Below are positions 4,616-62,874 of a stretch of DNA of 64,000 bases, piece by piece. The position numbers and the translations under genes were made by a program. The first letter of the stretch is position 1. Every line of letters begins with the position of its first letter. This stretch comes from a phage. The notes beneath the pieces were generated by a model. It saw nothing but the letters and a program-made list of their open reading frames with translations, searched no databases and was not told where the DNA came from. The stretch lies in NCBI GenBank assembly GCA_027262695.1, contig GCA_027262695.1_4722.1; one strand, given 5' to 3'.

Positions 4616-7414
<2,799 letters not shown>

Positions 7415-26463: not shown

Positions 26464-26994
26464 TTAAAGTGCGTTCAATTCTTCAGGTGTACGTACGGTA
26501 CGGGTGTTAGGATCAACCATTGCCGGTGTGCCAGCAGGACATTTGCGAACATCGATCCGCATCTCAGGTTCGATCGGACGAATACGGTATGTTTTACCGT
26601 CATCGGTTAATACCGAAATCGTCAACGCCTGGTTCAGTTCATTAACGAAGTTCACCAAACGTTGTTGACCTCCTTTCGCCCAGAAGTTAAGATCGGTTTC
26701 TCCATTAAAATAGCTGATCCCTTCAGCGGTGCCAATCGTGATCTTAACGATGCCAGGATAATCACGAAGAAGAGGTGCTTGATAACCTTCGTCCTCTGTA
26801 TCCAGTTTTACCCACGCACCACCTGTGGACAAGCAATTAACTTCTAACGCGGTTGGTGCACTAACCTCCGCTGATGACCAGGTATACATGGTACCTAGTT
26901 TTGCGTGTCCGGTTTCCAGTTCGCTGTAATCCCAAGCCTGTGCTGACGCGGTAATAAAGAAAGCAGCAAGAAACAACTTTTTCATTCTTTTCAA
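26464..26994 (-). CDS. secreted/periplasmic protein (signal peptide)
   Basis: N-terminal MKRMKKLFLAAFFITASAQA is a typical Sec signal peptide. Confidence 0.55.
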   Translation of the reverse strand: MKRMKKLFLAAFFITASAQAWDYSELETGHAKLGTMYTWSSAEVSAPTALEVNCLSTGGAWVKLDTEDEGYQAPLLRDYPGIVKITIGTAEGISYFNGETDLNFWAKGGQQRLVNFVNELNQALTISVLTDDGKTYRIRPIEPEMRIDVRKCPAGTPAMVDPNTRTVRTPEELNAL

Positions 26995-27039
26995 TTCCTA
27001 TTAGAGTGACCGATTATAGTGGTCGAGATTGCTAATAAC

Positions 27040-27474
27040 TTAATTCTGGTATTGTTTTCGTAATGCGCGATTACGTTTGCGTTCTTGGTTTTTAACGGTA
27101 CCAAGAAACAGCTTCAATTCTGACGGTTTAAGCGTACCCTCACGTACCGCACCGTTTTGTTCGATGTGATACGTCCAATGATCGACTTCCGCGGTTAAGA
27201 CTAACGTGGTGGGTTGTTCATCAGGTAACGATCGGGGTGAGAAAATAAAGAGTAATTCAAAAGGCGTTTCTCGGCTGATGATAGGACGGATACTAACATC
27301 AAGGCCCTCCCATCGCTGAGGTTTAAATATTCCTCCAGCCGCGACGATTGTCTCCGAGCGTTGTTCTACAAGCTGGGCTAATTCACGATCGTCATTGAAA
27401 TAAATATCGTGAAGGATATCTGTATCGATAAAAAATCCGCGCTCCGAATCGTGATGAACAATTGAATTCTTCAT
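27040..27474 (-). CDS. hypothetical protein
   Basis: 144-aa ORF. Confidence 0.45.
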   Translation of the reverse strand: MKNSIVHHDSERGFFIDTDILHDIYFNDDRELAQLVEQRSETIVAAGGIFKPQRWEGLDVSIRPIISRETPFELLFIFSPRSLPDEQPTTLVLTAEVDHWTYHIEQNGAVREGTLKPSELKLFLGTVKNQERKRNRALRKQYQN

Positions 27475-27526
27475 TTTAACGCCTTTTGTTGTTTGCTATC
27501 ATGTCCTATACGAACATGAAAAATCG

Positions 27527-27802
27527 TTAATCTTTACCGTTGAACGTAACGCCACGGCCGGTTACCGACGAAGGAACCTTGAGATAATAGAAGTAAATGT
27601 AATTGTCGCGATGGCTAAAATGGTTTTTGCAAGCATAGTACTCTCCAGCTCCAATGAATGATTTAATACGTGTAATTTGAGGGTGTCGTGCAAGCAACGC
27701 ACGTATCACGATTTCCATCTGATGGTCATTCAAACCCGGTCGTGCGTCGACGTGGAAATGAAGGTCCTTGAGGAACCGTTTCCAGGGATCAGGCTTTGAC
27801 AT
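27527..27802 (-). CDS. hypothetical protein
   Basis: Start at ATG 27802 after AAAGGAGGTGACG (ORF track start 27838 is the ATG of the TTCTATGCCG box). Confidence 0.45.
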   Translation of the reverse strand: MSKPDPWKRFLKDLHFHVDARPGLNDHQMEIVIRALLARHPQITRIKSFIGAGEYYACKNHFSHRDNYIYFYYLKVPSSVTGRGVTFNGKD

Positions 27803-27833
27803 CGTCACCTCCTTTAATAAGTAGCAGGAATGC

Positions 27834-27860
27834 GGCATAGAACCCTCCCCGGAGGGAGGG
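27834..27860 (-). terminator. GC hairpin followed by TTCTATGCCG box
   Basis: Minus strand CCCTCCCTCCGGGGAGGG TTCTATGCCGC. Confidence 0.55.
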
Positions 27861-27869
27861 TATGTAATG

Positions 27870-28427
27870 TTATTCCATCCAGACTTCTTCGTCGTAATGG
27901 TTCTCTATTGCGTTGCGCCAGAAGCGAACGGTATCCAAACTGATCGGCGTATAGAAATGTTGGTCAACACCGACGTTGAGTCCGTTTGCTTTCGCTAACA
28001 TACAACGATGGATATGTCCAAACAGATTGAAATACCCTGGGTTTCTTTCACTGGGTTTATGGCATAACCAATAAGACTCGTCGTTATTGATCGGCAATAC
28101 CAACGGATGTTCATAAACCGCAGCAAATCCCATATCAAGGAGCTTGTCGCGGAAAGCATCAAAACTCAACCCGCTCGCCTTGCAGGCGTCCTCGTCCCAA
28201 TTCCCGAGTACTAACTGAACCTGGATATCAGAACGAATGGCTTCAATGAACTCGAACTTGCCCCAATCGCCCAGATGCCACAACACGCTGTTCTTAGGGA
28301 GATTGTTGATGGCTTTCAGCATGTGTTGGTTCATGTCAGCCACGCTTGCAAACGGACGACGTGAATACACCCGGGTGCGTTCGCTGTCAAAATGCGTATC
28401 TGAAGTAAAGAAGATAGATGGGATCAT
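27870..28427 (-). CDS. calcineurin-like metallophosphoesterase
   Basis: Motifs SDTHFD, HLGDWG, GNWDED, GHIHR. Confidence 0.7.
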   Translation of the reverse strand: MIPSIFFTSDTHFDSERTRVYSRRPFASVADMNQHMLKAINNLPKNSVLWHLGDWGKFEFIEAIRSDIQVQLVLGNWDEDACKASGLSFDAFRDKLLDMGFAAVYEHPLVLPINNDESYWLCHKPSERNPGYFNLFGHIHRCMLAKANGLNVGVDQHFYTPISLDTVRFWRNAIENHYDEEVWME

Positions 28428-28906
28428 CGATCTAATTGCTCCAGAAATGCACGCCCTGATTTACTTGCACGCAAATGTTGTTCTGCGGAAGTCAGCAGCA
28501 CGTCGGTTGGCGTATAGGCTACACTGCCTTTCCACTCCGTCTTCAGCTTACCCTCTTCGATGCTGAACTGAATCAGTTGTTGGGTGCCAAAATTAAGCGT
28601 GTTGGTTGCTGCGCTGAATACACCACCCATCATGCTGTAACCAAAGACTTTCGCATCTTCTGCATAGAAGTCGTTGTCGATCAATTTGTTCTGTAGTTCC
28701 AGCTGATCGGACGGCAGCAGTCCACCATCAAAGACACTTAGAATACCGGCTAAGCGATAAATACTCACCTTTCCTGAAACACCCACCACGTAATTGCCGT
28801 ATGGTGTTTCCTCAAGCTTCGCGACGACGGTGCGATCATCGGAGGTTTTCATTGAAACCTCAATGCCATCATCGATTTCCGTTAATGTTAAATCAACAAT
28901 ACTCAT
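28424..28906 (-). CDS. hypothetical protein
   Basis: 160-aa ORF. Confidence 0.45.
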   Translation of the reverse strand: MSIVDLTLTEIDDGIEVSMKTSDDRTVVAKLEETPYGNYVVGVSGKVSIYRLAGILSVFDGGLLPSDQLELQNKLIDNDFYAEDAKVFGYSMMGGVFSAATNTLNFGTQQLIQFSIEEGKLKTEWKGSVAYTPTDVLLTSAEQHLRASKSGRAFLEQLDR

Positions 28907-28927
28907 TTGTTTTCTCCGCGTTCATGT

Positions 28928-29614
28928 TTAACACATGATTTCACCATGTTTCTTTTCAACATACGTATAAACATCATCCAAATAAGCGATGAGTTTATCA
29001 CGATTCGCACAAAGCGATTTGATCGTTGCAATCTCTTTCGTATAAAGCTGCTGGCCCAGGGCTGGATAAGTAATCCAAGCATAACCATCAGGTGCGAATT
29101 TAGAGATAAGGTAATCGGCGGTTTCCTGTAATGCGAACTCCTTGCTCATCTGGCCGTAGCGGTGTTCGATAGCACGAATACCAAAACGTTCACTATCAAG
29201 ACGACCCATATCCGCCAAACGAAGAACCTGAGAAGCCACAGAACTACGTGGACCGGAATACGAGGCGCGATGTTCAGCAATGAGTACGCGTATCTCCTCG
29301 ATATCTTCCGGTGTGAAAATATGTTGCTCATTACGAAGTAAGATAATCGACGCGCGAATACCGCCAATAAGGTGGTGGTATGTTCTGTTCTCATGACAAG
29401 CGATATCATGCATGAACGCTGCGGTTAACAGACGACGGCGTTCAACCGGTCGAATGATACCAACCACATCAGCAAGTTCATTTGCCAGTTCGACAACAGC
29501 AAGGACATGTTCTTCTTGATGGGCAAGATCGTTCTTTTTAATGTTATCAATAACTTCAGTGCGTGTTTCCTGAGATAAGAAATTTAAGCAGTCTAACGAA
29601 AATAAAGATTTCAT
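28928..29614 (-). CDS. HD-domain phosphohydrolase
   Basis: H...HD pattern (EEHVLAVVELANEL; AAFMHDIACH); TATATTAC-type promoter box 49 nt upstream. Confidence 0.55.
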   Translation of the reverse strand: MKSLFSLDCLNFLSQETRTEVIDNIKKNDLAHQEEHVLAVVELANELADVVGIIRPVERRRLLTAAFMHDIACHENRTYHHLIGGIRASIILLRNEQHIFTPEDIEEIRVLIAEHRASYSGPRSSVASQVLRLADMGRLDSERFGIRAIEHRYGQMSKEFALQETADYLISKFAPDGYAWITYPALGQQLYTKEIATIKSLCANRDKLIAYLDDVYTYVEKKHGEIMC

Positions 29615-45041: not shown

Positions 45042-46628
45042 TTAGAAGTTGCCTTTGGTGGTTACAGCATCAACCAGGTTGAACAAATCGATGCTCAGCT
45101 TATACACTTCCTGCTGGCTACGGTTGAGCAGCGGGCTATAAGCAGAAGGGTTGATGTTCGGCATGGTGTATGGAATCGGGGCAGAGCCATCAACGCTGAT
45201 CTTGAACTGGCTATCCAGGAACAGGTTAATTGCGCCACTTACCATAACCGCATTCGGGTTGTTCCCTAACATCGACGGTAAGATGTTGATGATCATATCG
45301 GAACGCATCTGCTCAGCAGCGCGGTTACAGTCGTAGCCTTTAATGAACGGTACCGCATCGGTAACCGCAACCGCCCACTGACCTGGCATGATACCCAGCT
45401 CTGGGTGACCGTGGTTGTCCGCAATGAAACGGAACGATTCCAGCATGCGGTACGTCATCGCCGCAGGCATCATGGACGCCAGCGAGGAGCAATAGATCGT
45501 TGGATAATCGATCACATCCCAGCTTTGGCTATCCGTTGGCATCCAACCGAATTCGGTGGTTGCTGATGTACCGCGACGGGCTTCCACATACGGGAACAGC
45601 GTCAGGACATCACGGATATGTTCACCGAAATGCCGTTTCATTTCACCCCAGCTCAGGCTACCGTTAAACGAAAAGCCCTCATCACGCATGATCTCATTGA
45701 ACATCGTGTGCGCAACCAGCGGTTGTTCACGGACGTATTGAGAAGCCTCAACGTAAACATCCTCGTTGTTGGCCTCGCCGGGATGAGAACCTAGCTCGAA
45801 GGTCTGACGAACGGTGCCCACGCTATCGAACGCTTTCTTCAGATAGATGGTTGGGATATTTGTATCGATGCTGGCGGGTTTTACCTTCTCTGTTGCAAAA
45901 CACAGCGCAGCATCCATCCCACGAACAACCGGTTCCTGTTGTGGTCGGTATGTTGAGTGGTTCACGACGTCCGCATACATCGGGTCGAACTGTTGCATCA
46001 CGTTCTGCATCGAAGGATCCATGAACTGATTGTCCATACCACCATTACCGAGCCAACGTGCAGTCGATGCGTAGGTCAGCGTATCCTGCACACGGGTACT
46101 GAACTGAACGTCGTTGTTCATTGGGTCATACGCCCCGGTAAGCAGATGGATAGCATCTTGAGGAGCTGCACGTACAACCTGTTTACCGAACATATCAACG
46201 GTGGTTGTTTCCAGCACGATAATGACGTTGGTGAAGAAGAACTGCAATTCGTTCGGCAGATCCTGTACGCGGGTTGTGTATGCATCCAACGGAACAGAAT
46301 AATCGGTGTATCCAGACACGTAATGAACACGTTTGCTTCCTGGAGCTAACGCAACCGATTCTTCTGCTGCCATCATGAAATGGAAACGACGGGTACCCCA
46401 ACCATTAGCAATCTCTGAAACCCCTTCCGGCTGTGCGGTTTGCTCTAACATCCCGGCAGCCAGTTTATTGATCGCTGATGGTGTTGTCGCGGTGCCGAAT
46501 CGCGTTGTGTTAATAAACTCTTCCAGGCTATGCATGCTGTCAGCGTGGAACTGAATTGGACGACGGTGCACATTGTTGTATGGTGCGGTTTCAACCATCA
46601 GGATTTCACGAACATTCATCGATACCAT
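45042..46628 (-). CDS. hypothetical protein
   Basis: 528-aa ORF. Confidence 0.55.
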   Translation of the reverse strand: MVSMNVREILMVETAPYNNVHRRPIQFHADSMHSLEEFINTTRFGTATTPSAINKLAAGMLEQTAQPEGVSEIANGWGTRRFHFMMAAEESVALAPGSKRVHYVSGYTDYSVPLDAYTTRVQDLPNELQFFFTNVIIVLETTTVDMFGKQVVRAAPQDAIHLLTGAYDPMNNDVQFSTRVQDTLTYASTARWLGNGGMDNQFMDPSMQNVMQQFDPMYADVVNHSTYRPQQEPVVRGMDAALCFATEKVKPASIDTNIPTIYLKKAFDSVGTVRQTFELGSHPGEANNEDVYVEASQYVREQPLVAHTMFNEIMRDEGFSFNGSLSWGEMKRHFGEHIRDVLTLFPYVEARRGTSATTEFGWMPTDSQSWDVIDYPTIYCSSLASMMPAAMTYRMLESFRFIADNHGHPELGIMPGQWAVAVTDAVPFIKGYDCNRAAEQMRSDMIINILPSMLGNNPNAVMVSGAINLFLDSQFKISVDGSAPIPYTMPNINPSAYSPLLNRSQQEVYKLSIDLFNLVDAVTTKGNF

Positions 46629-46629
46629 T

Positions 46630-48216
46630 TTATTTTTTTCCTCTTAAATTTACTACATGTTCATTTAATCGAACAACTAATTGCACAAGCTGCTGACGGA
46701 TATCTGCTGGGCAAAGCATCAATCCTTTACGATCAGCGGGGACTTTCTCAAGGATTTCAGGGCCTGCTGCTGAAACATCCCAATCCCATTCACAAAACGC
46801 ATCGGCTACCATGTTAATACCGACAACCGGTAAAGTTGTACGTTCATCTTCATACATGGCATGCGGATACAATTTATTGACGGTAATAATCTCCTGTGGT
46901 TTTAATTGGTGGATAATCTGATAAACATCATCACGTTTAACCTGGATGCCTACGGTTAATGCGGCCAGTTGAGGGAAACCCCAATGGTCTAACAAGCATG
47001 CCGCAATCGCTAACGCTTTTGCCTGATGCACGGCTTCAATCGGTGCCAGACTTCTCGCCGGAAGATGGCTGTCCAACAACCATTGCGCCAGTGCTCGGCA
47101 TCCGCGATTGATCGGTTTTAACTCAACGGTATCATCATGCTTCGCGTAAGTGTATCCATCGTAACGTTTTGCGATACGCGCATACATGTCTTCAACCTTA
47201 CCGTACGGTGCGGTTTCATCAACGTCGTGTAACACCCGTTCCATCTGGGTAAGATAAGCGATATCAAGAATGAGTACACGTGGTGAACGTTTATCTTTCA
47301 CCATCAGCGCATCAATCACACCTTGGCTATCTTCATCTTGCGCATTCCCTCGCGGAGTTTTCTCACGTATGGGTCCGCTGAAACGACGTTCCGTACAGAG
47401 GTTATTCACATAACTGAAAATCAGCGTCACCAGATGCGTACAACTGACCAACACCCCATCTTTAACGACGGGCTGCACGGCTTGGTCCAAATCACGTACC
47501 GCAAGGCGTCTGACGATGGCTTGCGAACGCAACCAACCCGGCACTTTTTCTGTTGACATGTAATCCACGGTCATCGACAACGTGATCTTTTTATCGCCTG
47601 TCTGTGCACGGATATAGTCTTCCAGTCGGTCATAAGCTGCGATATCATGAATGCGTGTTTTATACATCAGCGACATCGCCACTTCTTCTTTACGTACTGT
47701 CCCGTACGTTTTCCCCGCATCAATCAGGAACTCAGCCCAGATAGGCACCATCAAACGAACGTAAATCGCTAACGCGGTTAACTCAACATAATCGTTTCGT
47801 AAATAGGTTTTCTCTGGGATATCATCCTCGCCTAATGTCGTTTTCATGTCTGGCGGTAATTTTACCCAACCTGGGGTATTACACAACGCCAGAATCTCTT
47901 CGTATACAACGGGTTTGTAGATTTCGCCAACGGCGCGACTCAGCTCCTCCATTTGTTGTTGCGGTGCAATGTAATTATCCATCGCTTCACGTGCTTTAAC
48001 GAACCCTTCAAAGATATCATCGGTTCGACGTGGGTTCTTTTGCTCTATCCAGGCAAGATACTTGTTAATCTCTCGCATCTGATTGCTGGCCATATCCCCA
48101 TCGATCTTGATATAACCTTGGCCTGAAAATTCCACGGTCCGTCCATCACGATGTTTGATAAGATAATGGTCTAGCTTTTCTTTGCCTTGCGTCGTAATGA
48201 CGGGCACAATGTGCAT
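46630..48216 (-). CDS. hypothetical protein
   Basis: 528-aa ORF; TATATTAC-type box 56 nt upstream. Confidence 0.55.
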   Translation of the reverse strand: MHIVPVITTQGKEKLDHYLIKHRDGRTVEFSGQGYIKIDGDMASNQMREINKYLAWIEQKNPRRTDDIFEGFVKAREAMDNYIAPQQQMEELSRAVGEIYKPVVYEEILALCNTPGWVKLPPDMKTTLGEDDIPEKTYLRNDYVELTALAIYVRLMVPIWAEFLIDAGKTYGTVRKEEVAMSLMYKTRIHDIAAYDRLEDYIRAQTGDKKITLSMTVDYMSTEKVPGWLRSQAIVRRLAVRDLDQAVQPVVKDGVLVSCTHLVTLIFSYVNNLCTERRFSGPIREKTPRGNAQDEDSQGVIDALMVKDKRSPRVLILDIAYLTQMERVLHDVDETAPYGKVEDMYARIAKRYDGYTYAKHDDTVELKPINRGCRALAQWLLDSHLPARSLAPIEAVHQAKALAIAACLLDHWGFPQLAALTVGIQVKRDDVYQIIHQLKPQEIITVNKLYPHAMYEDERTTLPVVGINMVADAFCEWDWDVSAAGPEILEKVPADRKGLMLCPADIRQQLVQLVVRLNEHVVNLRGKK

Positions 48217-48269
48217 AACAACCTCTTTTCGCGGTTCCCTGTTAAACGTTTTCTATAACGCCATCAAGG

Positions 48270-48288
48270 AGGTAATATAAGCGTGAAT
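48270..48288 (-). promoter_or_regulatory. candidate early promoter box (minus strand ATTCACGCTTATATTACCT)
   Basis: Same box upstream of 46630..48216. Confidence 0.45.
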
Positions 48289-48302
48289 AATTTTGGATTC
48301 CT

Positions 48303-48354
48303 GCTGAGTCATCGCTCAGCATGCAAGGCATCCCGCCGAAGCGAGACACCTTGC
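48303..48354 (-). terminator. two adjacent hairpins downstream of 48419..49207
   Basis: GCTGAGTCATCGCTCAGC and GCAAGG...CCTTGC. Confidence 0.4.
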
Positions 48355-48418
48355 ACTAACGGAAAATACTCGCGTTACCTTCTGAATCGAAGACCCAGAA
48401 TGCGATACTAAAGCATCA

Positions 48419-49207
48419 TTAGAATGCTAAGCCATCAAAGGCGATTGACGGATCATCATCGTCATTTGCGCTAGGCGCGTCCCAACGCGTGTCAGGGGCT
48501 GCTGGAGCCGAACTTGAGGCATTAGAGTTACCGTTGTACTGGCCGTTACCAGCATTACGGTTACCGCCACCGTTGTTATTGTTACGATTGTAGCTGTTGT
48601 TACCATTACTTACGCTACGGCTTTCACCGTCAAAGTTGGTTGCGAGGATGCTTGGTAACACCGCACGATGAATACGTACGAATTCCAGCGCACAAAGCGG
48701 AGAAACAACACCGATCTGCAAAGGTTGTCCAGACTCATCAACCAAAGCGTGGAAACGCGGTGGTTTGAACACGAATTGGATGTTCGGTTTTTGGTATGCG
48801 GTTACCGCGATGTACACCGAACCATCGTCATTCTTACCGACCCACGTTGTGCTCTCGGTAATCTGCTTTTTCTTACCTGGGTTATTGCGATCATCGATAA
48901 CCTTTTCGTTCTTCATCGCAAAGCGTTGACCAGGTTTACCCTTAGCAACCTGCTCAAGGATCGCCAGTAGGTTATAGAACGCGTATGAACTCATGCGTGC
49001 CCAAATGCTTTCAGCACGACCCTGTTGGTCTTTACGTCCTGTATAAACCGTAATACGTGGTTGATTTTTAGCGACGCTAATTTTCAATGATGGAATTGAA
49101 TTACCGCCCTCAACCTTCTCGTCCGCCCACAGTTTCCAGTTGTTGTCGTCATAAGCCGTAGGAATGATATTTCCTTGTGGTTTACTGCCCGAATTCCAAT
49201 TGCTCAT
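48419..49207 (-). CDS. hypothetical protein with Gly/Asn-rich linker and acidic C-terminal tail (SSB-like tail architecture)
   Basis: C-terminus NGNNSYNRNNNNGGGNRNAGNGQYNGN...ANDDDDPSIAFDGLAF. Confidence 0.35.
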   Translation of the reverse strand: MSNWNSGSKPQGNIIPTAYDDNNWKLWADEKVEGGNSIPSLKISVAKNQPRITVYTGRKDQQGRAESIWARMSSYAFYNLLAILEQVAKGKPGQRFAMKNEKVIDDRNNPGKKKQITESTTWVGKNDDGSVYIAVTAYQKPNIQFVFKPPRFHALVDESGQPLQIGVVSPLCALEFVRIHRAVLPSILATNFDGESRSVSNGNNSYNRNNNNGGGNRNAGNGQYNGNSNASSSAPAAPDTRWDAPSANDDDDPSIAFDGLAF

Positions 49208-49281: not shown

Positions 49282-50070
49282 TCAACGAAACATGTCTAAC
49301 AGAAAACGTTTCGCAAACGGGTCTCGTAATTGGTTAACGCCGAAGCGGGTACGGTCTTCCGTGGTTAACGGATTCCATTGACTTTGTTTCGCAAGGTCTA
49401 ATAACATCCTTTTTACTTTCACCGGTCCGCTATTGAACTGTACCGCTTGGTCACCGAACGTACCCAGGGTCATTTTCGTAAAGGGGAGGTTCGCAACCTC
49501 TGGACGATCACCCCCCGTCAGTTTGGTTGACCATTGATGTTTTCGTTTCAAAGTTCCGGTATGGCTCTCTACCAAAATAAGTTCACCAAAACCGGTTCTT
49601 GCTAACAGGTCAGAAACATAATGGGTGGTGATATACGACGTCTTGGTTATCGTGGGTAATTTACAATCCATTGATTCGATATTCGGAAACTTCTCTACCG
49701 ACGATAGCAACCCATGGTAAAGTGCTGCAAGCCCTTTTTGTTTTTCGGTATGCGGCTCCTTGTGTATGGCATGCGGATAAACACGCTTGATCGATGCGTA
49801 GGTTGGCGCATAAATCCGTAAACGAATATGCGGGATAACTTCGTTAGCCAGTTGTCGTAATTGCATCAGTTCGTTATGGAAATCGCCGTCAATCATTGAC
49901 ACCGGTAATCGGTGCTGCTCAACATCCTCGTAGCTTTCAACGAAGTTACGTGCTAACGTACGCAGGTTAAAAAGCCAATCCATCGGCGTCTCCGGCTGTT
50001 GCTGTATTGCCGTGAGTGTTACCGACGTCCCTACCGATAACGGATAATCACCTAACGAGCGGGTGTACAT
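49282..50070 (-). CDS. hypothetical protein
   Basis: 262-aa ORF. Confidence 0.5.
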   Translation of the reverse strand: MYTRSLGDYPLSVGTSVTLTAIQQQPETPMDWLFNLRTLARNFVESYEDVEQHRLPVSMIDGDFHNELMQLRQLANEVIPHIRLRIYAPTYASIKRVYPHAIHKEPHTEKQKGLAALYHGLLSSVEKFPNIESMDCKLPTITKTSYITTHYVSDLLARTGFGELILVESHTGTLKRKHQWSTKLTGGDRPEVANLPFTKMTLGTFGDQAVQFNSGPVKVKRMLLDLAKQSQWNPLTTEDRTRFGVNQLRDPFAKRFLLDMFR

Positions 50071-50081
50071 ATCACTCCCTC

Positions 50082-51227
50082 TTATAGCGGTAACGTATCA
50101 AGCCATGCAGAAACCTTCAGGGCATCAACGTTCGGATATTTATTGCGTACACGTTCAACCAATAAACGCTTCACGTTGTCTTTTGTCAAGTCTCCACCTT
50201 TCTCGATAACATTGTTAACAAAACTGTTCTTTAATAACGATTGGTTATTTTTGGCATCGGTTTTAATCGACCAAATGAAACCTGGGTATAAAGCAGGAAT
50301 AGAACGGAACGTTTTCGCTGCATCATCTTCCTTATCGCAACGGATTCGGATATGATCCCCTTTTTTCAATGAAGCAAGTTCCCGTTCCAAAACCCGTACG
50401 ATTTCATCGCCAACAAGACCATGCAATTTTATCGTCTTGTAGACATCGGCTTTCTTGTTCTCAACGAACTCCCATTGGTCATTGAACGATTCGGTTAATG
50501 CGTATCGAAGATAACCTTTCGGACCTTCTTCTCCATGCGCAAGACGTCCGAACGAACCTCCCACCATGATACGCCCTTTCTGCGACTGTAAGTGAATATG
50601 TCCACTTACAATCCATCCTTGCGTTTTCTCCACCATCGCATTATACGCATCGCTACTATGCACACACGTTGCTTTTAACGCTTCTGGTGGTAGCTGATAT
50701 TCAAACGCACCATGCATCAGAATAAAGTCAGGTGATCCTTTCTCGTCAATGAGTTTGTTCACTGCTGCTAACGTGACGTCTGGGTCATGGCTGTAGTTAT
50801 CAGGAAGATAAAGCACTTTCAACCCGAAGTCTTCATCGACCATGCAGAGATCGTCATAGTAACGAACTTTCGCACCGATTTCCATGACTTCATTCTGTTC
50901 CACAAACCACTGGCTTTGCTTCTGATCGTGTAAGTTGGTGCCCTCAAGAAAGATCAACGTAATATCGTGTTTTCTTGCGTATCTTAACAGCCAGGTACCC
51001 CAGGCACGAACAGCAACCACATCGCTTGTTACAAAGGTCGTAATACGGTCGAAGACATCACCACTGAATGTAATCACGTCGAGTAACGCCGGGTCCTCTT
51101 TCGTGATGTAATAACGCAGCTGGCTAATCAGGTTTACCGTTGGCGTTTGACGATGGATAAAATGAATATCCGATAAATTGATTCCTCGTAATACCCCAGG
51201 CGTTTTATTTCGGCTGAAGTCTCGCAT
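50082..51227 (-). CDS. metallophosphoesterase (Mre11/SbcD-like nuclease fold)
   Basis: Motifs ITFSGDVFD, LEGTNLHD, MHGAFEY, SGHIHLQ. Confidence 0.6.
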   Translation of the reverse strand: MRDFSRNKTPGVLRGINLSDIHFIHRQTPTVNLISQLRYYITKEDPALLDVITFSGDVFDRITTFVTSDVVAVRAWGTWLLRYARKHDITLIFLEGTNLHDQKQSQWFVEQNEVMEIGAKVRYYDDLCMVDEDFGLKVLYLPDNYSHDPDVTLAAVNKLIDEKGSPDFILMHGAFEYQLPPEALKATCVHSSDAYNAMVEKTQGWIVSGHIHLQSQKGRIMVGGSFGRLAHGEEGPKGYLRYALTESFNDQWEFVENKKADVYKTIKLHGLVGDEIVRVLERELASLKKGDHIRIRCDKEDDAAKTFRSIPALYPGFIWSIKTDAKNNQSLLKNSFVNNVIEKGGDLTKDNVKRLLVERVRNKYPNVDALKVSAWLDTLPL

Positions 51228-55356: not shown

Positions 55357-55734
55357 CTGTTTGTCGACTATATCTTCATCTTCATTGCGAAGAGACTCTC
55401 GTTTGGGTTTGTGTTTAACAAAGCCTACTCTACTCAACATCGCGTCTTTCGATAGTCTGTGAGCACACATCTTAACGAATATTCGTGGGTTCCTACAGAC
55501 AGGTGAATATTCTTGTTGAGATGCTTCGCTGCGGATTATTCCCGTCCTACCTCTTTTACCATACCCAGTTCATTACGCTGGCCCTCATCGATGTCACCAT
55601 GATGAGTTGGTGTGTAGTCCGATTACAGAAACTTCCCGTCAATTAGAGAGTTTTAACTATGCTCCTGTTACCAGGAACCAGATCCCGACGGTATCAATAA
55701 ATCAACGTAAGTTATTGATTTAATTGAAAAAACT
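55357..55734 (-). mobile_element. group I intron 2 in beta-prime gene (no ORF)
   Basis: Minus-strand P AATTGACGGGAAG (55643-55631), Q AATCCGCAGCGAAG (55536-55523), R CACAGACTATCG (55460-55449), S AAGATATAGTC (55376-55366). Confidence 0.7.
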
Positions 55735-55747: not shown

Positions 55748-56114
55748 TCTTAATCTTCGATATGGTTCGCTAAGCCATATCCGCACATACGTGCAGCTTA
55801 CGTCTTTCACGTAAGAAGAGACTATATCTTTCACCCTCAGCTTTACCTGTTAGGGGCTCCCATTTCGGCGGTCGTTTGACCGGTGGTTTCCCACGCCGCT
55901 TGGCCCTAACGCCCGTGAGCGATAGTCGTTGAGCACATCTCCGTTCTGGAGACTTCGCTGCGGATTCCTCAATCCTTACTGCTTTTACCGTACCTGAATG
56001 ATTAGTTCAGCCCCACGCTCTGTTCCCAGGCATGGTTGGTGAGCAAGGCTCTAAGTAGGTTCCCGCTATTAGAGAGTTCCTCGTGACAGCATTACTGTGT
56101 CACTGGGCCTAATG
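55748..56114 (-). mobile_element. group I intron 1 in beta-prime gene (no ORF)
   Basis: Minus-strand P AATAGCGGGAAC (56069-56058), Q AATCCGCAGCGAAG (55965-55952), R CAACGACTATCG (55930-55919), S AAGATATAGTC (55829-55819); exon ends GGGT, IGS GCCC. Confidence 0.7.
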
Positions 56115-57357
56115 ACCCTTTCAAGATCATCACGCTTAACCCGATGGTGTTATCCTGCGGGTCGCGTTTAACCTTGGTGATTTCAAGACATTGGTTACTG
56201 CTACGGTCAAGTGATGGATTTCGAACAAAGCCACACACAATCCCATCGAACGGTGTATCAGCAATAAGCTCGTCATGCAGCTCGCTCATCATCGGATGAT
56301 AATTGCGGACATGCTCTGCAACGAACGCACGGGCTGCTCTTGGTGAATAACCACGATGGAATAACTTGGATTGGATATGTTCTTTATTGGTTAGTGTAAA
56401 TGGTGCGTACGGAAAATGCAGATGATAATAACGATGGTTTGCTGTTATCGAACTGATGACCGTACGTGTGGTGAATGGATGTAATGTACCTAATATGTTC
56501 TTACGTGTGATCCCTTTCTTCTTACCAATGAACTCATCGAAAATCGCCGAGTGATACTGCAACAGCTTCAATTGCACTTTCGCCATCCAGTTTTCTTTCT
56601 TTCTGGCGCTTAGTGGCGTGGTTGGATGATAGATGCTATTCAATGTTCCGATGGCGTCTATCGCACCTTCCATTTTGCTGTCAGCGTAACGTCCTGTTGG
56701 CGTGTTCTCGATCACGAACATCATGGCTGCAGGAAAGCTGATGTACTGACTGAAGAATTTATCCCGATGAATACGGATGAATTCGCGTAGCGTATCAACC
56801 TTCTCCATGTTCTTCGGTCCACGTAGTGTGGGTCCTTTATACAAGATCTCCATGATACGATCGAAGTTCTGTATAAAGCTATTTATACCGCGTCGTATTC
56901 CGAATACATCGAATTGCTGTTCCAGATAGTTCTTAAGTTCGATCGGTCGTTTTACGTTCGGACGGTAACTGGCATCAATGAGCCACGTCATCGTTTCAAA
57001 GCTTTTGATATTCAACTCGCTTGCCAGCACGAGATGGACCAACGGGTTAATGAACGCATCGATACCTTCCGGTACGCGCGCCCAGACCGTTGAACGAATC
57101 TCTTGTTCTGCTGGATAAGTGACAACCGTTTTACAGTTCGGGCACACCGTCCCTAATAACTCACCGCGATTATAGAAACCACAACCGCATTGCGGGGTGA
57201 TATCCAAGGTATCGCTCGAGTAAACACGGGTGATGAAACTGTTTAATTTCTTCTTCTCTTCCACGACCTTCGTATCATAATCGTTCAACAATATCGGCGT
57301 AAAAGGAAGTTCTGCGAGCTGTCTATCGAAACTGACGATATCGAGCATGATGGCCAT
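56115..57357 (-). CDS. RNA polymerase beta-prime-like subunit N-terminal part, exon 1
   Basis: Zinc site TPQCGCGFYNRGELLGTVCPNCKTVV ~ beta-prime YECLCGKY...CEKCGVEV; RKNILG...RTVISS ~ RFRQNLLGKRVDYSGRSVI; VRNPSLDRS ~ LNRAPTLHR. Confidence 0.75.
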
Positions 57358-57449: not shown

Positions 57450-59348
57450 TTAGAACAGGTTGAATGCCCCGCCCATGCCGTTACCGCCCACATTCGGACG
57501 ATCGTTACGTGCGTAGATGTTGCCGCTGATGGTACCCAGACCGCGAGCACGTGCTGCCATGTTACCACGAACAGCGGTGCCTGCCAGATGCTGGATGTTC
57601 TCAGGACGGATGGTGAAGCCTGCTTCAGCAGCCGCTTCAATCAGTGCCTGCAACGCCAGCGGATCGAAATCATAACGCATCGCCCAGCCGGTTTGTTCCC
57701 AGCTACCAGACAGAACGCGGTCGATGATTTCGTGACGAGCAACCACACGCTGAGACATCGACATATCGGTACGGTCGAAGCTGTCTTCCCAAGCTTCTAC
57801 GGTATCCGGGTTGGTGATGTTCATCATGTACAGATCGTCCATATCACGAATATCGTGACGGTTACCGTCCTGGTGGTTGTAGTGACCCAGCGGGATACGG
57901 TTACCGGTCGCGTAGACCAGCGGTGAGCCGTACGGATATTTCTTGCTGAAGCAACCCAGGGTAACATCATCGAACGCACGGAAGAGGGCTTTGTAGCCTT
58001 CGGAGTATTCCTGTACGTCCCCTTCAACATTACCCGAGAAGATCTTCTCAGCCGCCGGGATCATACGCAGCAGCCAGCTGTACTCGCCTTCTTCTGGTAC
58101 ATCGATAGAGATCAGCAGAGACGGATACAGAACCTGTTGCAGGAACTTGTAAATCTGCTCGTTGGTTTGCGTAGACAGATCCAGCGGTGCAGTCACTTCA
58201 GGATCCAGCACCATCGCCAGAGCACCTGGGTTATGCGGACCAATACCACGAGCCGCGTTGCTGATTAAAGACTGTGCCCATGCCATGCCGCTGTTCAGCG
58301 TAGCGATGGTACCAATCAGACCCAGCACGAAGCTGTTCGGCGTGAACGCATCCAGTTCCAGCGGATACATGCTGGTCATTACGTAGCGCGGCTGGTACTG
58401 AACAGTTGGCGGTACCGGATAACCGTTAACCAGAACAGGACCTTGCTGGAAGGTCGGGTTCTGCGGGCTGTAGGTCAGATCGATATAACCGGTGGATGCA
58501 ACCAGACGCTGCTGGCTATCGTAATCGCCCATCGCTTGACGGATGCGGTTAGAGATAGTTACAGTAATGTCGGAGCGTACCGGGTTACCCGCGATATCAC
58601 TGTCCTGCATGCCGCTGGTGTTATACTGAACGCTGCTGATCGGCTGGTCGCTTGCCATCATACCCAGGTTGAACTGAGGCAGGCCCAGTCTGTCAGCAAA
58701 ACGCATTTCGGTTGCCGTCTGGATCGCGTTATCTGCTGCAGACAGCAGGGTGGTTGCCAGATGCGCAGATTCAGCAGTGATTTCATTGGTCACAACAGCC
58801 AGACCAGCGATACGTACCGTACCGTTGGCTTTACCACCGATAGCCGCATACATCGCTGCCATGACTTCGTTGATGAACGTGCCGTTCAGGTTATCCACCC
58901 AAGTACATGGTACCAGGATGTTACCGTGAGGACCACGTTCTTCACGACGTGGCAGCGGAGCCAGGCCAGCAACCAGCGGAAGGACGTAACCGAAGAAGTG
59001 GTTATGATCGCCCACTTTTACACCGCTCATCACAACCAGGGTCGGATACGGTACGCTGTACTGGTTCGGGTCAACCGCAACAAAGATGAAGTCGTCTTTG
59101 AACTGGGTATCTTCCAGATATTTCTCCATCAGACGACGGAGATTCAGTACCTGCTCGGAGCCGGTATTACGGCTGATACGACGGCTCAGTGTACGGTTGA
59201 TCGTACGCATCGTATGAGTTACTTTAGGACGGTCAGCAAAATCTGCAGCGGTTTCGACCGCTTCGTTAGCGCGCTGCGCCGCGCGGGTTTCAGCTACGCG
59301 GATGTCTACGTTATCGTTACCGTTATTGTTACGTACGTCTAAGCCCAT
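57450..59348 (-). CDS. large early protein, candidate nuclear-shell (chimallin-like) protein
   Basis: 632 aa, TATATTAC-type box 71 nt upstream, directly upstream of beta-prime gene (as recalled for phiKZ gp54/gp55); no diagnostic motif identified. Confidence 0.4.
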   Translation of the reverse strand: MGLDVRNNNGNDNVDIRVAETRAAQRANEAVETAADFADRPKVTHTMRTINRTLSRRISRNTGSEQVLNLRRLMEKYLEDTQFKDDFIFVAVDPNQYSVPYPTLVVMSGVKVGDHNHFFGYVLPLVAGLAPLPRREERGPHGNILVPCTWVDNLNGTFINEVMAAMYAAIGGKANGTVRIAGLAVVTNEITAESAHLATTLLSAADNAIQTATEMRFADRLGLPQFNLGMMASDQPISSVQYNTSGMQDSDIAGNPVRSDITVTISNRIRQAMGDYDSQQRLVASTGYIDLTYSPQNPTFQQGPVLVNGYPVPPTVQYQPRYVMTSMYPLELDAFTPNSFVLGLIGTIATLNSGMAWAQSLISNAARGIGPHNPGALAMVLDPEVTAPLDLSTQTNEQIYKFLQQVLYPSLLISIDVPEEGEYSWLLRMIPAAEKIFSGNVEGDVQEYSEGYKALFRAFDDVTLGCFSKKYPYGSPLVYATGNRIPLGHYNHQDGNRHDIRDMDDLYMMNITNPDTVEAWEDSFDRTDMSMSQRVVARHEIIDRVLSGSWEQTGWAMRYDFDPLALQALIEAAAEAGFTIRPENIQHLAGTAVRGNMAARARGLGTISGNIYARNDRPNVGGNGMGGAFNLF

Positions 59349-60720: not shown

Positions 60721-62874
60721 TTACTCTGCGGTTTCTTTTTTCGGTTGGTAGCTTGCAGCGATATCTTGGGCTAACAGTGTGTTGTTCTTATTCGAAATGA
60801 AAATACCGTAACTTTCCATTAATGCGTAATACGAGCGAACGAGTGTAGAAATCAATCGACGAATATCCATACCTTGGATGAAAATATCGGGAAGCCCAGA
60901 GGCTTCGATCACCGGTAATGGTATCGTTAAATTGCTTATCGTTTTCTTATCGTTACGTACAATCCAATCACGGAAACGTTGTTGTAACCCTTTATCCTCC
61001 CAGGAATCAATCCAATCATTAAGAAGCGTTTTGTTCTTCGTTGCCAATGGTACACGAACCCCAACATAAGGCGGTTCAGGGCAATGGCCGTACGATTGCG
61101 CAAACACCTCTTCCCACATGTCGTACGACTGCTTGGTAACCGCAACATGTGGTTTTACTTTAACGCGTGTTAAGAAATCAGGATCGCCGCGTTTCATCGA
61201 TTCCACGATTTCGTTTTCTAACGCGATGATATCATCAAGTACTAATCTGATACTGATCTTCTCGTTACGTAACAGTTTATCCATGATACCGCACATCATG
61301 CGCTCAACACGTTGTACGATCATTTTTGGTGCTGATGCGTCACGCATAACGGGACCTTTCAATTCCAGTTTCGGCGGATTGATTGGAACCCCTTCACGCA
61401 TGGTCATGTAACCGTAATAGTTTTTACCCATTGAAGTCAACGACAGAATCAAGAACATATACTCGTTCTTCATTTCCATCACGTACATATGCTCTTTCGC
61501 GACGCCGATATTACCCGAACACATTGCCATCAGATGAACCGTAATCTGCGTAACCAGGTAGATAAGCGTATTCGCTAAGCGCGTTGAAATCGGATTGATC
61601 TCCATGTTGCCAAACCGCCACTGAACCCACTCCTGACAGGTAAATACCGTTGAGTCGGTATCGGACAACACACCCACTTCACGGATGGCTGACGGAAACG
61701 CATAAACACCCGCGGGTTGGTTCTCGGTGCGCCAGAACGCCATAATCAGGTCAGCGTAACTCTGGATACGTTGTAACATTAATTTTGTCGTGGCAGCGGT
61801 AAGACGATAACCCAGTTCGTTGCCTTTTTCTAACGCAACGTAAATCGCTTCACCATTTAAGAACTCGGTACACTGTGCTGTAATCCAGGCAACCGTGTTA
61901 TTATCCATGGAGGCGATAATGGCTTTCGCCTCTTCCATCGTTTCAACAGGTTCGGTGGCCAATTCACATAACGAATCAAGGAAACCACAAACAAACTCAG
62001 GATTCAGTTCACGCAACGAATACAAGTTGTTACTATACATGTAACAGGCGCGTTCCAACGGCGTTAAACCGTTAATCAACTCCTGAATAACCAGTTCTTT
62101 TTCCGGGTCGAAAATATAGCGATGCAGGCATTTTGATACATTAGCCCAAACCTCTTCCGGTGTAGGGTAATGTAGCTGGTATTTTACCATCACCTGCTCA
62201 ATGGCTTTACGATCGCTGTTACGGACAATGCTTACGATATTTTCAATCGCGATATCACAATCGTAATAATGAAAATTACCCGCCAGGAACCGCTCGTTAT
62301 TCGCATTCGCCGAACCGGAAGCGCATCGGCATGTCGTGGTTAAACTCGGATGTGCGATCGGGTTATAAAACGGATTGAATTTAGATGCCTGTGTTCCCGA
62401 CAAACTGTTGTTGTCTAACTTGGTGTTAGTCTGTCGTTTATCATGCAGTTCCGCTTCGTCTTTACGTCCATGTGCTTGTGCAATAGACATTTGTTTCTTT
62501 TGTTTCTTACGCAACTTACCGTTTTCAACCGCGAAGTCGCTTAACACACTGGAACGTGTTTCACGTGGATAACAGTTCGCCCATACCGGGGTAATGATTA
62601 AATTATTTTCTTTGATATCGTTGATATACTGACTGAACTTAATAACTTCTTTTTCTCGGTTTCCTTCGGTACGTTGTGTTAAAACAAGACAGTCAGGATC
62701 AACCATCCCGTGTGCACCACCTGGCTTGATAGTATCAAGTACGAACCGTAATGCTTCTTGTTGAGAAATACCACGCATGCGCATTAAGAACAGGGTATAA
62801 TCCTGCACCGCTTCTTTGGTCATATCCAACGTACGACCGTATCCGTTTTCATCGTAAAAGAACGGATTTTCCAT
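60721..62874 (-). CDS. RNA polymerase beta-like subunit, N-terminal part
   Basis: SYGHCPEPPYVGVRVPL resembles beta HYGRVCPIETPEGPNIGLI; size and context fit split-beta arrangement. Confidence 0.45.
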   Translation of the reverse strand: MENPFFYDENGYGRTLDMTKEAVQDYTLFLMRMRGISQQEALRFVLDTIKPGGAHGMVDPDCLVLTQRTEGNREKEVIKFSQYINDIKENNLIITPVWANCYPRETRSSVLSDFAVENGKLRKKQKKQMSIAQAHGRKDEAELHDKRQTNTKLDNNSLSGTQASKFNPFYNPIAHPSLTTTCRCASGSANANNERFLAGNFHYYDCDIAIENIVSIVRNSDRKAIEQVMVKYQLHYPTPEEVWANVSKCLHRYIFDPEKELVIQELINGLTPLERACYMYSNNLYSLRELNPEFVCGFLDSLCELATEPVETMEEAKAIIASMDNNTVAWITAQCTEFLNGEAIYVALEKGNELGYRLTAATTKLMLQRIQSYADLIMAFWRTENQPAGVYAFPSAIREVGVLSDTDSTVFTCQEWVQWRFGNMEINPISTRLANTLIYLVTQITVHLMAMCSGNIGVAKEHMYVMEMKNEYMFLILSLTSMGKNYYGYMTMREGVPINPPKLELKGPVMRDASAPKMIVQRVERMMCGIMDKLLRNEKISIRLVLDDIIALENEIVESMKRGDPDFLTRVKVKPHVAVTKQSYDMWEEVFAQSYGHCPEPPYVGVRVPLATKNKTLLNDWIDSWEDKGLQQRFRDWIVRNDKKTISNLTIPLPVIEASGLPDIFIQGMDIRRLISTLVRSYYALMESYGIFISNKNNTLLAQDIAASYQPKKETAE

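Follow-up and report, generated by a model that had tools for sequence, protein, structure and literature searches.

The open reading frame (ORF) at positions 48419-49207 of the window, by which we mean the whole 64,000-nucleotide stretch of phage DNA analysed here, very probably encodes ChmC (= Imp6) of a Goslar-like nucleus-forming jumbo phage (Chimalliviridae), a protein with a Whirly/PUR-type domain and a disordered tail. ChmC/Imp6 has already been studied and the finding as first given is already known; the main value of the re-identification is the correct annotation of a gene that is still a 'hypothetical protein' in GenBank. [quoted passage not shown] The gene and the parts of its product are as follows.

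48419..49207, minus strand: chmC/imp6 gene, a single ORF with an ATG start and 262 codons plus stop (ORF listing)
49145..49207, minus strand: disordered N-terminal segment, aa 1-21 (predicted; pLDDT below 50)
48638..49144, minus strand: Whirly/PUR-like nucleic-acid-binding domain, aa 22-190, with two beta-beta-beta-beta-alpha repeats (AlphaFold2)
48512..48610, minus strand: Asn/Gly-rich disordered linker, aa 200-232 (composition; pLDDT about 30)
48467..48511, minus strand: Ala/Pro-rich spacer SAPAAPDTRWDAPSA, aa 233-247 (composition)
48422..48466, minus strand: acidic tip with a hydrophobic end, NDDDDPSIAFDGLAF, aa 248-262 (divergent DFDDDIPF-type C-terminus)

The 262-aa product ends in ...SNGNNSYNRNNNNGGGNRNAGNGQYNGNSNASSSAPAAPDTRWDAPSANDDDDPSIAFDGLAF, an exact match to the C-terminus quoted in the earlier note. 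In tblastn searches of GenBank phages, the protein was 99.2% identical to Goslar_00176 of Escherichia phage Goslar and about 27-32% identical, over residues 22-199, to PHIKZ067 and PhiPA3 061. Matches in a similar range over the same residues came from homologues in 201phi2-1, Phabio, Noxifer and others, and jumbo phages of Erwinia, Burkholderia and Bacillus were matched as well. BLASTP against PhiPA3 gp61 gave an E value of 2e-15, and the protein fell into PHROG 3284 ('unknown function') at E 1e-35. The homology to PhiPA3 gp61 and PhiKZ gp67 is that expected of ChmC/Imp6. The family was named Chimallin C (ChmC) for PhiPA3 gp61, PhiKZ gp67 and Goslar gp176 (Enustun et al., NAR 2024, PMC11077065), and a second group named PhiKZ gp67 Imp6 (bioRxiv 10.1101/2024.03.27.586873). 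Goslar carries only one chmC homologue by tblastn; PMC11077065 numbers its genes as RefSeq does, RefSeq coordinates equal those of the GenBank locus tags for Goslar gp022 and gp053, and the numbering in PMC11077065 agrees with that of GenBank for genes below 187. From the agreement in numbering and the single homologue we concluded that gp176 of PMC11077065 is Goslar_00176. One mismatch in numbering leaves gp176 unaffected: Goslar ChmA is called 'gp246' in PMC11077065, but Goslar_00246 of GenBank MK327938 is a putative RNase HI, and the chimallin-like Goslar gene by synteny is Goslar_00189 (171003-172898).

At the DNA level, chmC was only about 89-91% identical to its Goslar counterpart, and the region around it 88.6%. 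The two genes differed at 68 nucleotides and their products by two amino-acid changes (P235S and I255V), corresponding to a dN/dS of 0.006 over the whole ORF (Nei-Gojobori). Such a nearly unchanged protein encoded by DNA that has diverged by about 9-11% assigns the window to a relative of Goslar rather than to Goslar itself. The exact window protein (P0001) was present in 108 blocks of a public assembly collection. These included contigs of about 160-245 kb in NCBI assemblies (GCA_041342935.1, GCA_026066175.1). NCBI lists a 99% variant under the name of a Salmonella enterica serovar Schwarzengrund protein, and enterobacterial isolate assemblies and metagenomes often seem to contain genomes of Goslar-like phages.

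The position of the gene agrees with this identity. The following neighbours were identified in the window.

50082..51227, minus strand: SbcD-like nuclease subunit, with which the conserved block opens (PHROG 100, E 1.4e-39)
49282..50070, minus strand: PhiKZ gp66 / PhiPA3 gp60 homologue, upstream neighbour (PHROG 3229, E 3.5e-65)
46630..48216, minus strand: PhiKZ gp68 homologue, nvRNAP (non-virion RNA polymerase) subunit, directly downstream (PHIKZ068 BLASTP E 4e-34; PHROG 3209)
45042..46628, minus strand: imp1/picA homologue, nuclear import factor, two genes downstream (PHIKZ069 BLASTP E 1e-15, full length; PHROG 3141)
57450-59348, minus strand: chimallin, 8 kb from chmC (PF25677, E 1e-25)
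60721-62874, minus strand: divergent family B DNA polymerase (PF20286, E 4e-202)

Because chimallin and a divergent family B polymerase are both encoded in the window, we concluded that it derives from a nucleus-forming phage. The order SbcD-like, gp66-like, chmC, gp68-like, Imp1-like was conserved in six isolated phages (Goslar, PhiKZ, PhiPA3, Bacillus phage AgentSmith, Erwinia phage pEa_SNUABM_54 and Burkholderia phage FLC9) and in two metagenomic contigs, one of which has chimallin 8 kb upstream. By synteny, the counterparts of the SbcD-like gene are annotated as the SbcCD D subunit in PhiPA3 and AgentSmith, and the gp66-like position is occupied in PhiKZ, PhiPA3, AgentSmith, pEa_SNUABM_54 and FLC9. 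The window gene therefore lies where ChmC is found, in the core block of a chimallin-encoding genome.

Most genes of this neighbourhood abut, and a gap of 202 nt (48217-48418) lies between chmC and the gp68-like gene. It contains an inverted repeat (GCTGAG…CTCAGC) around 48300-48320 and may be the site of a terminator or of a phage promoter. Scans around chmC revealed no sigma-70-like promoter and two terminator-like sites, both inside the ORF and on the wrong strand. The window contained no tRNAs and no Rfam match at the gathering score. Two tandem group-I-intron-like matches to RF00028, at 55357-55726 and 55798-56135 (both on the minus strand), lie directly downstream of an RNA polymerase beta'-like ORF (56092-57357); one scored 49.2 bits (gathering score 50; E 3.8e-11) and the other 26.9 bits (E 1.8e-4). 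At this spot Goslar is annotated with one group I intron and an HNH/NUMOD1 endonuclease gene; the window, which is shorter here by about 1 kb, lacks an ORF for such an endonuclease. One or two introns without an endonuclease gene probably interrupt the RNAP beta'-like gene.

The fold of the protein was modelled with AlphaFold2 as a monomer from a 7-sequence alignment. Residues 22-190 had pLDDT values of 75-96, whereas residues 1-21 and 190-262 were below 50 and the tail was below 35. The predicted structure has the Whirly/PUR-like two-repeat fold of ChmC/Imp6. Its nearest structural relatives were plant organelle Whirly proteins, and a Foldseek search of viral models (BFVD) matched uncharacterised jumbo-phage proteins only. 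The plant Whirly proteins (PBF-2 p24, PDB 1l3a; StWhy2, 3n1h) and T. brucei MRP1/MRP2 (2gia) are relatives in fold at 8-14% sequence identity, and the window protein shares the Whirly fold but not the sequence signature of the Pfam Whirly model. The plant Whirly/MRP proteins also differ in having neither the N/G-rich linker nor the SSB-type tip, and in their organelle biology. The PhiPA3 Rmut residues R35, R44 and R63 aligned by BLASTP with K42, R51 and R71 of the window protein, and N48, P50 and R51 are nearly invariant across the ChmC family.

The earlier note had likened the C-terminus to the linker and tip of SSB while recognising no OB-fold signature in the N-terminal domain. We considered the possibility that the protein is a canonical OB-fold SSB whose signature has diverged too far to be seen by eye, a reading for which the tail architecture alone speaks. 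No OB-fold protein was found among the structural matches to the AlphaFold2 model. A Pfam scan gave no family at E <= 1, the SSB and Whirly models included, and a PDB sequence search with the whole protein returned insignificant WD40 matches to aa 2-28 and no match to solved SSBs. At the level of fold prediction, the Whirly/PUR-like model refutes a canonical SSB, and we give this reading practically no chance of being correct. The note was thus right about the missing OB-fold signature. Its comparison with SSB holds for the linker and the acidic, hydrophobic-ended tip, and for a fold predicted to bind ssDNA or RNA; it does not extend to an OB-fold domain or to identity as a canonical SSB.

The Asn/Gly-rich linker and acidic C-terminal tip that the note described were borne out by the ORF listing and by composition. 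Asn or Gly accounts for 21 of the 33 residues of aa 200-232 (64%) compared with 14% in aa 1-199 (binomial P = 8e-11), and aa 248-262 (NDDDDPSIAFDGLAF) contain five Asp, no basic residue and a Phe at the end. The window protein therefore shares with the ChmC/Imp6 orthologues not only its core-block position and predicted Whirly-like domain, but also a disordered C-terminus that is N/G-rich and then acidic. The close relatives P0002 and P0003 end in DDDDDDAAPAFQGLPL. Compared with Goslar, dN/dS in the tail alone was 0.025, with 16 synonymous changes and no indels, indicating that the low-complexity tail is a selected coding feature rather than a product of chance or drift. I255V is the sole change within the acidic tip and is conservative.

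The likeness to SSB was stronger at the level of the family. An exhaustive HMMER search with residues 1-205 (E <= 1e-3) yielded 476 representatives (50% identity clusters); a word-indexed homologue search gave 8 matches only, and P0009 (945 aa, 11 'stretches') was discarded as a repeat artefact. Tip statistics were taken from the C-termini of the best 150 of the 476 representatives, in which the majority residues at the last eight positions were D-F-D-D-D-I-P-F. Among these best 150, Pro was present at position -2 in 103, Phe, Met or Trp at -1 in 114, and Ile, Leu or Phe at -3 in 120, while Asp occupied -4, -5 and -6 in 112, 106 and 80, respectively. In 140 of the same 150, the last eight residues included two or more acidic ones and lacked basic ones, and relative entropy was 1.6-2.6 bits at -6 to -1 compared with 0.6-0.9 bits just upstream. 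The linker preceding the tip was 0-102 aa long (median 43) and averaged 54% G+N+Q+S in 147 family representatives. E. coli SSB ends in exactly the consensus sequence, DFDDDIPF. When the tail of P0020 (…QPPMDFDDSIPF) was compared with the PDB, it found E. coli-type SSBs only, aligning end-to-end with …EPPMDFDDDIPF; the match of PPMDFDDSIPF to PPMDFDDDIPF of SSB had an E value of 0.2, which on its own is only suggestive, the query being short and compositionally biased.

Phages of Escherichia, Pseudomonas, Erwinia, Burkholderia and Bacillus have all retained the tip. In the Goslar clade it departs from the consensus, DDDDPSIAFDGLAF being a divergent form of DFDDDIPF. Individual tips read as follows.

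pEa_SNUABM_54 (tandem two-domain form): AFDTDIPF
FLC9: SEDLPF
AgentSmith: SFDTDVPM
PhiPA3 gp61: GFDDEIPNF
PhiKZ gp67: AFDEDMPSF
Goslar clade: poly-D followed by AFDGLAF or AFQGLPL

Some members of about 420-470 aa (P0015, P0020, P0039 and P0058) contain two tandem ChmC-like domains, which lead via a Q/N/G-rich linker to a canonical tip of the SSB type. The two-domain ChmC occupies the same syntenic position, for example in the pEa_SNUABM_54 locus at 5440-6852, and two tandem-domain chains would supply four domains, as four single-domain chains do. In P0080 (metagenomic, 435 aa), DUF4326 and YspA/SLOG (DprA-like) are fused to a ChmC-like domain with the acidic tip …DNFLDEDILF; this candidate fusion, from one metagenomic gene call, may hint at a connection to DNA processing.

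Bacterial SSB phase-separates via its linker and tip, and the C-terminal tips of E. coli SSB, T4 gp32 and T7 gp2.5 recruit partner enzymes. T4 gp32 and T7 gp2.5 are OB-fold proteins whose acidic C-terminal tail auto-inhibits and recruits phage replisome proteins, with gp2.5 ending in Phe; they resemble ChmC in the acidic tail and differ from it in the OB fold. E. coli SSB (PDB 1eqq/4mz9) is like the ChmC family in its disordered Gly-rich linker and in an acidic tip ending in Ile-Pro-Phe, and both are tetramers. Bacterial SSB differs in having an OB-fold DNA-binding domain where ChmC has a Whirly-like one, and ChmC prefers RNA. The spacer SAPAAPDTRWDAPSA of the window protein resembles SAPAAPSNEPP, which precedes the E. 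coli SSB tip; we take this as a resemblance only.

N/G-rich runs are common, and both the length and the sequence of the linker vary widely across the family. The tail could on these grounds be non-functional low-complexity sequence whose likeness to that of SSB is coincidental. We consider this highly improbable, as it is contradicted by the selection on the tail since the divergence from Goslar, by the rise in information over the last six positions, by the retention of the tip in phages of five bacterial genera, and by the published failure of a C-terminal deletion (delta-C) to restore the Goslar titre (PMC11077065).

The identity, fold, disorder, tail composition, synteny and selection described above were computed here, whereas the tetramer, RNA/ssDNA binding, condensates, knock-down phenotypes and Imp1 binding are taken from the literature. 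The biochemistry is that of the PhiPA3 homologue, whose identity is no more than about 28%, and the Goslar protein was studied in vivo only. ChmC has an AlphaFold-predicted Whirly/PUR fold and is a homotetramer by SEC-MALS (PMC11077065). PhiPA3 ChmC bound ssRNA with a Kd of 58 nM and ssDNA with a Kd of 184 nM, both activities being lost in Kmut and Rmut, and its binding to ssDNA was cooperative with a Hill coefficient of 2.4 (PMC11077065). The disordered C-terminus comprises about 40 residues rich in N/G and about 15 rich in S/D/E, the latter termed an 'electronegative cluster'; the N/G-rich region drives condensates, which are abolished by deleting the C-terminal disordered region, and the Figure 3A legend on this region includes Goslar gp176 (PMC11077065). 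In cells, ChmC bound phage mRNAs as judged by eCLIP (PMC11077065). Knock-down of Goslar chmC with dCas13d reduced plaquing to ~4% and stalled nucleus development, leaving small nuclei; mRNAs were kept in the nucleus (FISH) and phage protein levels were lower (PMC11077065). Like delta-C, Rmut failed to restore the titre, and with the Rmut protein a shell without DNA was observed (PMC11077065). ChmC has been given roles in mRNA export and in the nuclear shell rather than in replication (PMC11077065). PhiPA3 ChmC is located at the shell and not across the whole DNA-filled lumen, and PhiPA3 gp61 was first detected among RecA- and ChmA-proximal proteins. PhiKZ Imp6 directly binds the core import factor Imp1 (gp69, PicA) in a 2:1 complex of about 120 kDa (bioRxiv 10.1101/2024.03.27.586873), and PhiKZ orf67 tolerated zero transposon insertions. 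In reviews from 2025 and 2026, ChmC/Imp6 is presented as a factor that binds nucleic acid and may aid mRNA export.

If the window protein behaves as its studied homologue does, residues 22-190 would form a Whirly/PUR-type domain that assembles into a tetramer and binds ssRNA, and ssDNA more weakly, via a basic surface. Residues 190-262 would form a disordered tail in which the Asn/Gly-rich linker gives multivalent weak contacts and drives RNA condensates, and which terminates in the acidic, hydrophobic-ended tip. The protein would be located in and on the phage nucleus, bound to phage mRNAs and associated with Imp1/PicA, the product of the gene two downstream, and mRNA exit from the nucleus, the synthesis of phage proteins and the formation of progeny would depend on it. 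The role in mRNA export is deduced from knock-down phenotypes, and an indirect global block of nucleus development could yield the same phenotypes.

We also looked for another SSB. There was no SSB product among the 249 annotated loci of Goslar, and tblastn with E. coli SSB, T4 gp32 and T7 gp2.5 found nothing below E 0.1 in Goslar or the window; the tail of the E. coli query agrees with the PDB alignment, and the sensitivity is that of BLAST. An N4-type SSB had been considered before any search and was dropped once the phage was recognised as Goslar-like. The classic OB-fold SSB is a marker of T4-like jumbo phages and not of the PhiKZ-like group, and these phages may have recruited single-strand-binding proteins of their own (Iyer et al., PMC7824862). 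SSB is absent from the Chimalliviridae core-genome paper, and the term 'SSB' from the ChmC paper (PMC11077065) and from two phage-nucleus/jumbo-phage reviews; within the searchable literature, the ChmC/Imp6 papers and jumbo-phage reviews contained no ChmC-SSB connection. The lack of an SSB detectable by BLAST or annotation is weak negative evidence that is consistent with ChmC covering that role. The ORFs of Goslar and the window were also scanned with a regular expression for SSB-tip-like C-termini; the pattern missed the divergent tip of ChmC itself and gave one match, ending in VIDEDFEL. The ORF lies at 26942-29203 (minus strand) of the window and matches Goslar_00164 (RAD2/SF2 helicase-like); its acidic-hydrophobic end is probably a coincidence.

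These observations raise the possibility that ChmC, additionally or primarily, is the functional SSB of the phage nucleus, a non-OB tetramer that coats the ssDNA of replication and recombination while its tip recruits enzymes. We regard this as possible but unlikely. Plant Whirly proteins, the nearest structural relatives, are ssDNA binders. The DFDDDIPF consensus of the best 150 of 476 representatives, following a G/N-rich linker of variable length, and the exclusive matching of the P0020 tail to E. coli-type SSBs in the PDB both point towards an SSB role, as do the cooperative ssDNA binding of the tetrameric PhiPA3 homologue, its proximity to RecA, the candidate fusion of one metagenomic member to a DprA-like SLOG domain, the SbcD-like nuclease gene near chmC, the small nuclei after knock-down and the DNA-free shell of Rmut (PMC11077065). 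The empty searches of Goslar, the core-genome paper and the two reviews, and the T4-like distribution of the OB-fold SSB (PMC7824862), fit as well, although the search for a canonical SSB was only BLAST-sensitive. On the other hand, RNA is bound three times tighter than ssDNA. Together with the eCLIP binding of phage mRNAs, the nuclear retention of mRNA in FISH upon knock-down (PMC11077065) and the localisation of PhiPA3 ChmC to the shell, this preference argues for an RNA-centred role. Furthermore, the tips are degenerate in the experimentally studied phages (AFDGLAF in Goslar, FDEDMPSF in PhiKZ and FDDEIPNF in PhiPA3).

By analogy with the C-terminal tip of SSB, we infer that the ChmC tip may act as a short docking or auto-regulatory motif. 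That it is a true motif of the SSB-Ct type, and that ChmC doubles as an SSB-like hub of the phage nucleus, we suggest only tentatively. If so, the tip would recruit partners, which could be phage factors for replication, recombination or transcription, Imp1/PicA, or imported host proteins that interact with SSB. The published delta-C effects concern the whole disordered region and not the tip separately; the delta-C phenotype, which was attributed to loss of condensates, would then partly or wholly reflect lost tip-mediated interactions. PhiKZ-like phages replicate a large genome inside a compartment from which most host proteins are kept out, and their SSB is unassigned. An essential, tetrameric, nuclear binder of single-stranded nucleic acid that carries the exact bacterial SSB tip motif after an SSB-like linker suggests a candidate for this missing function, and the tip itself suggests a simple linear motif that could bring partners to ChmC or keep it in check.
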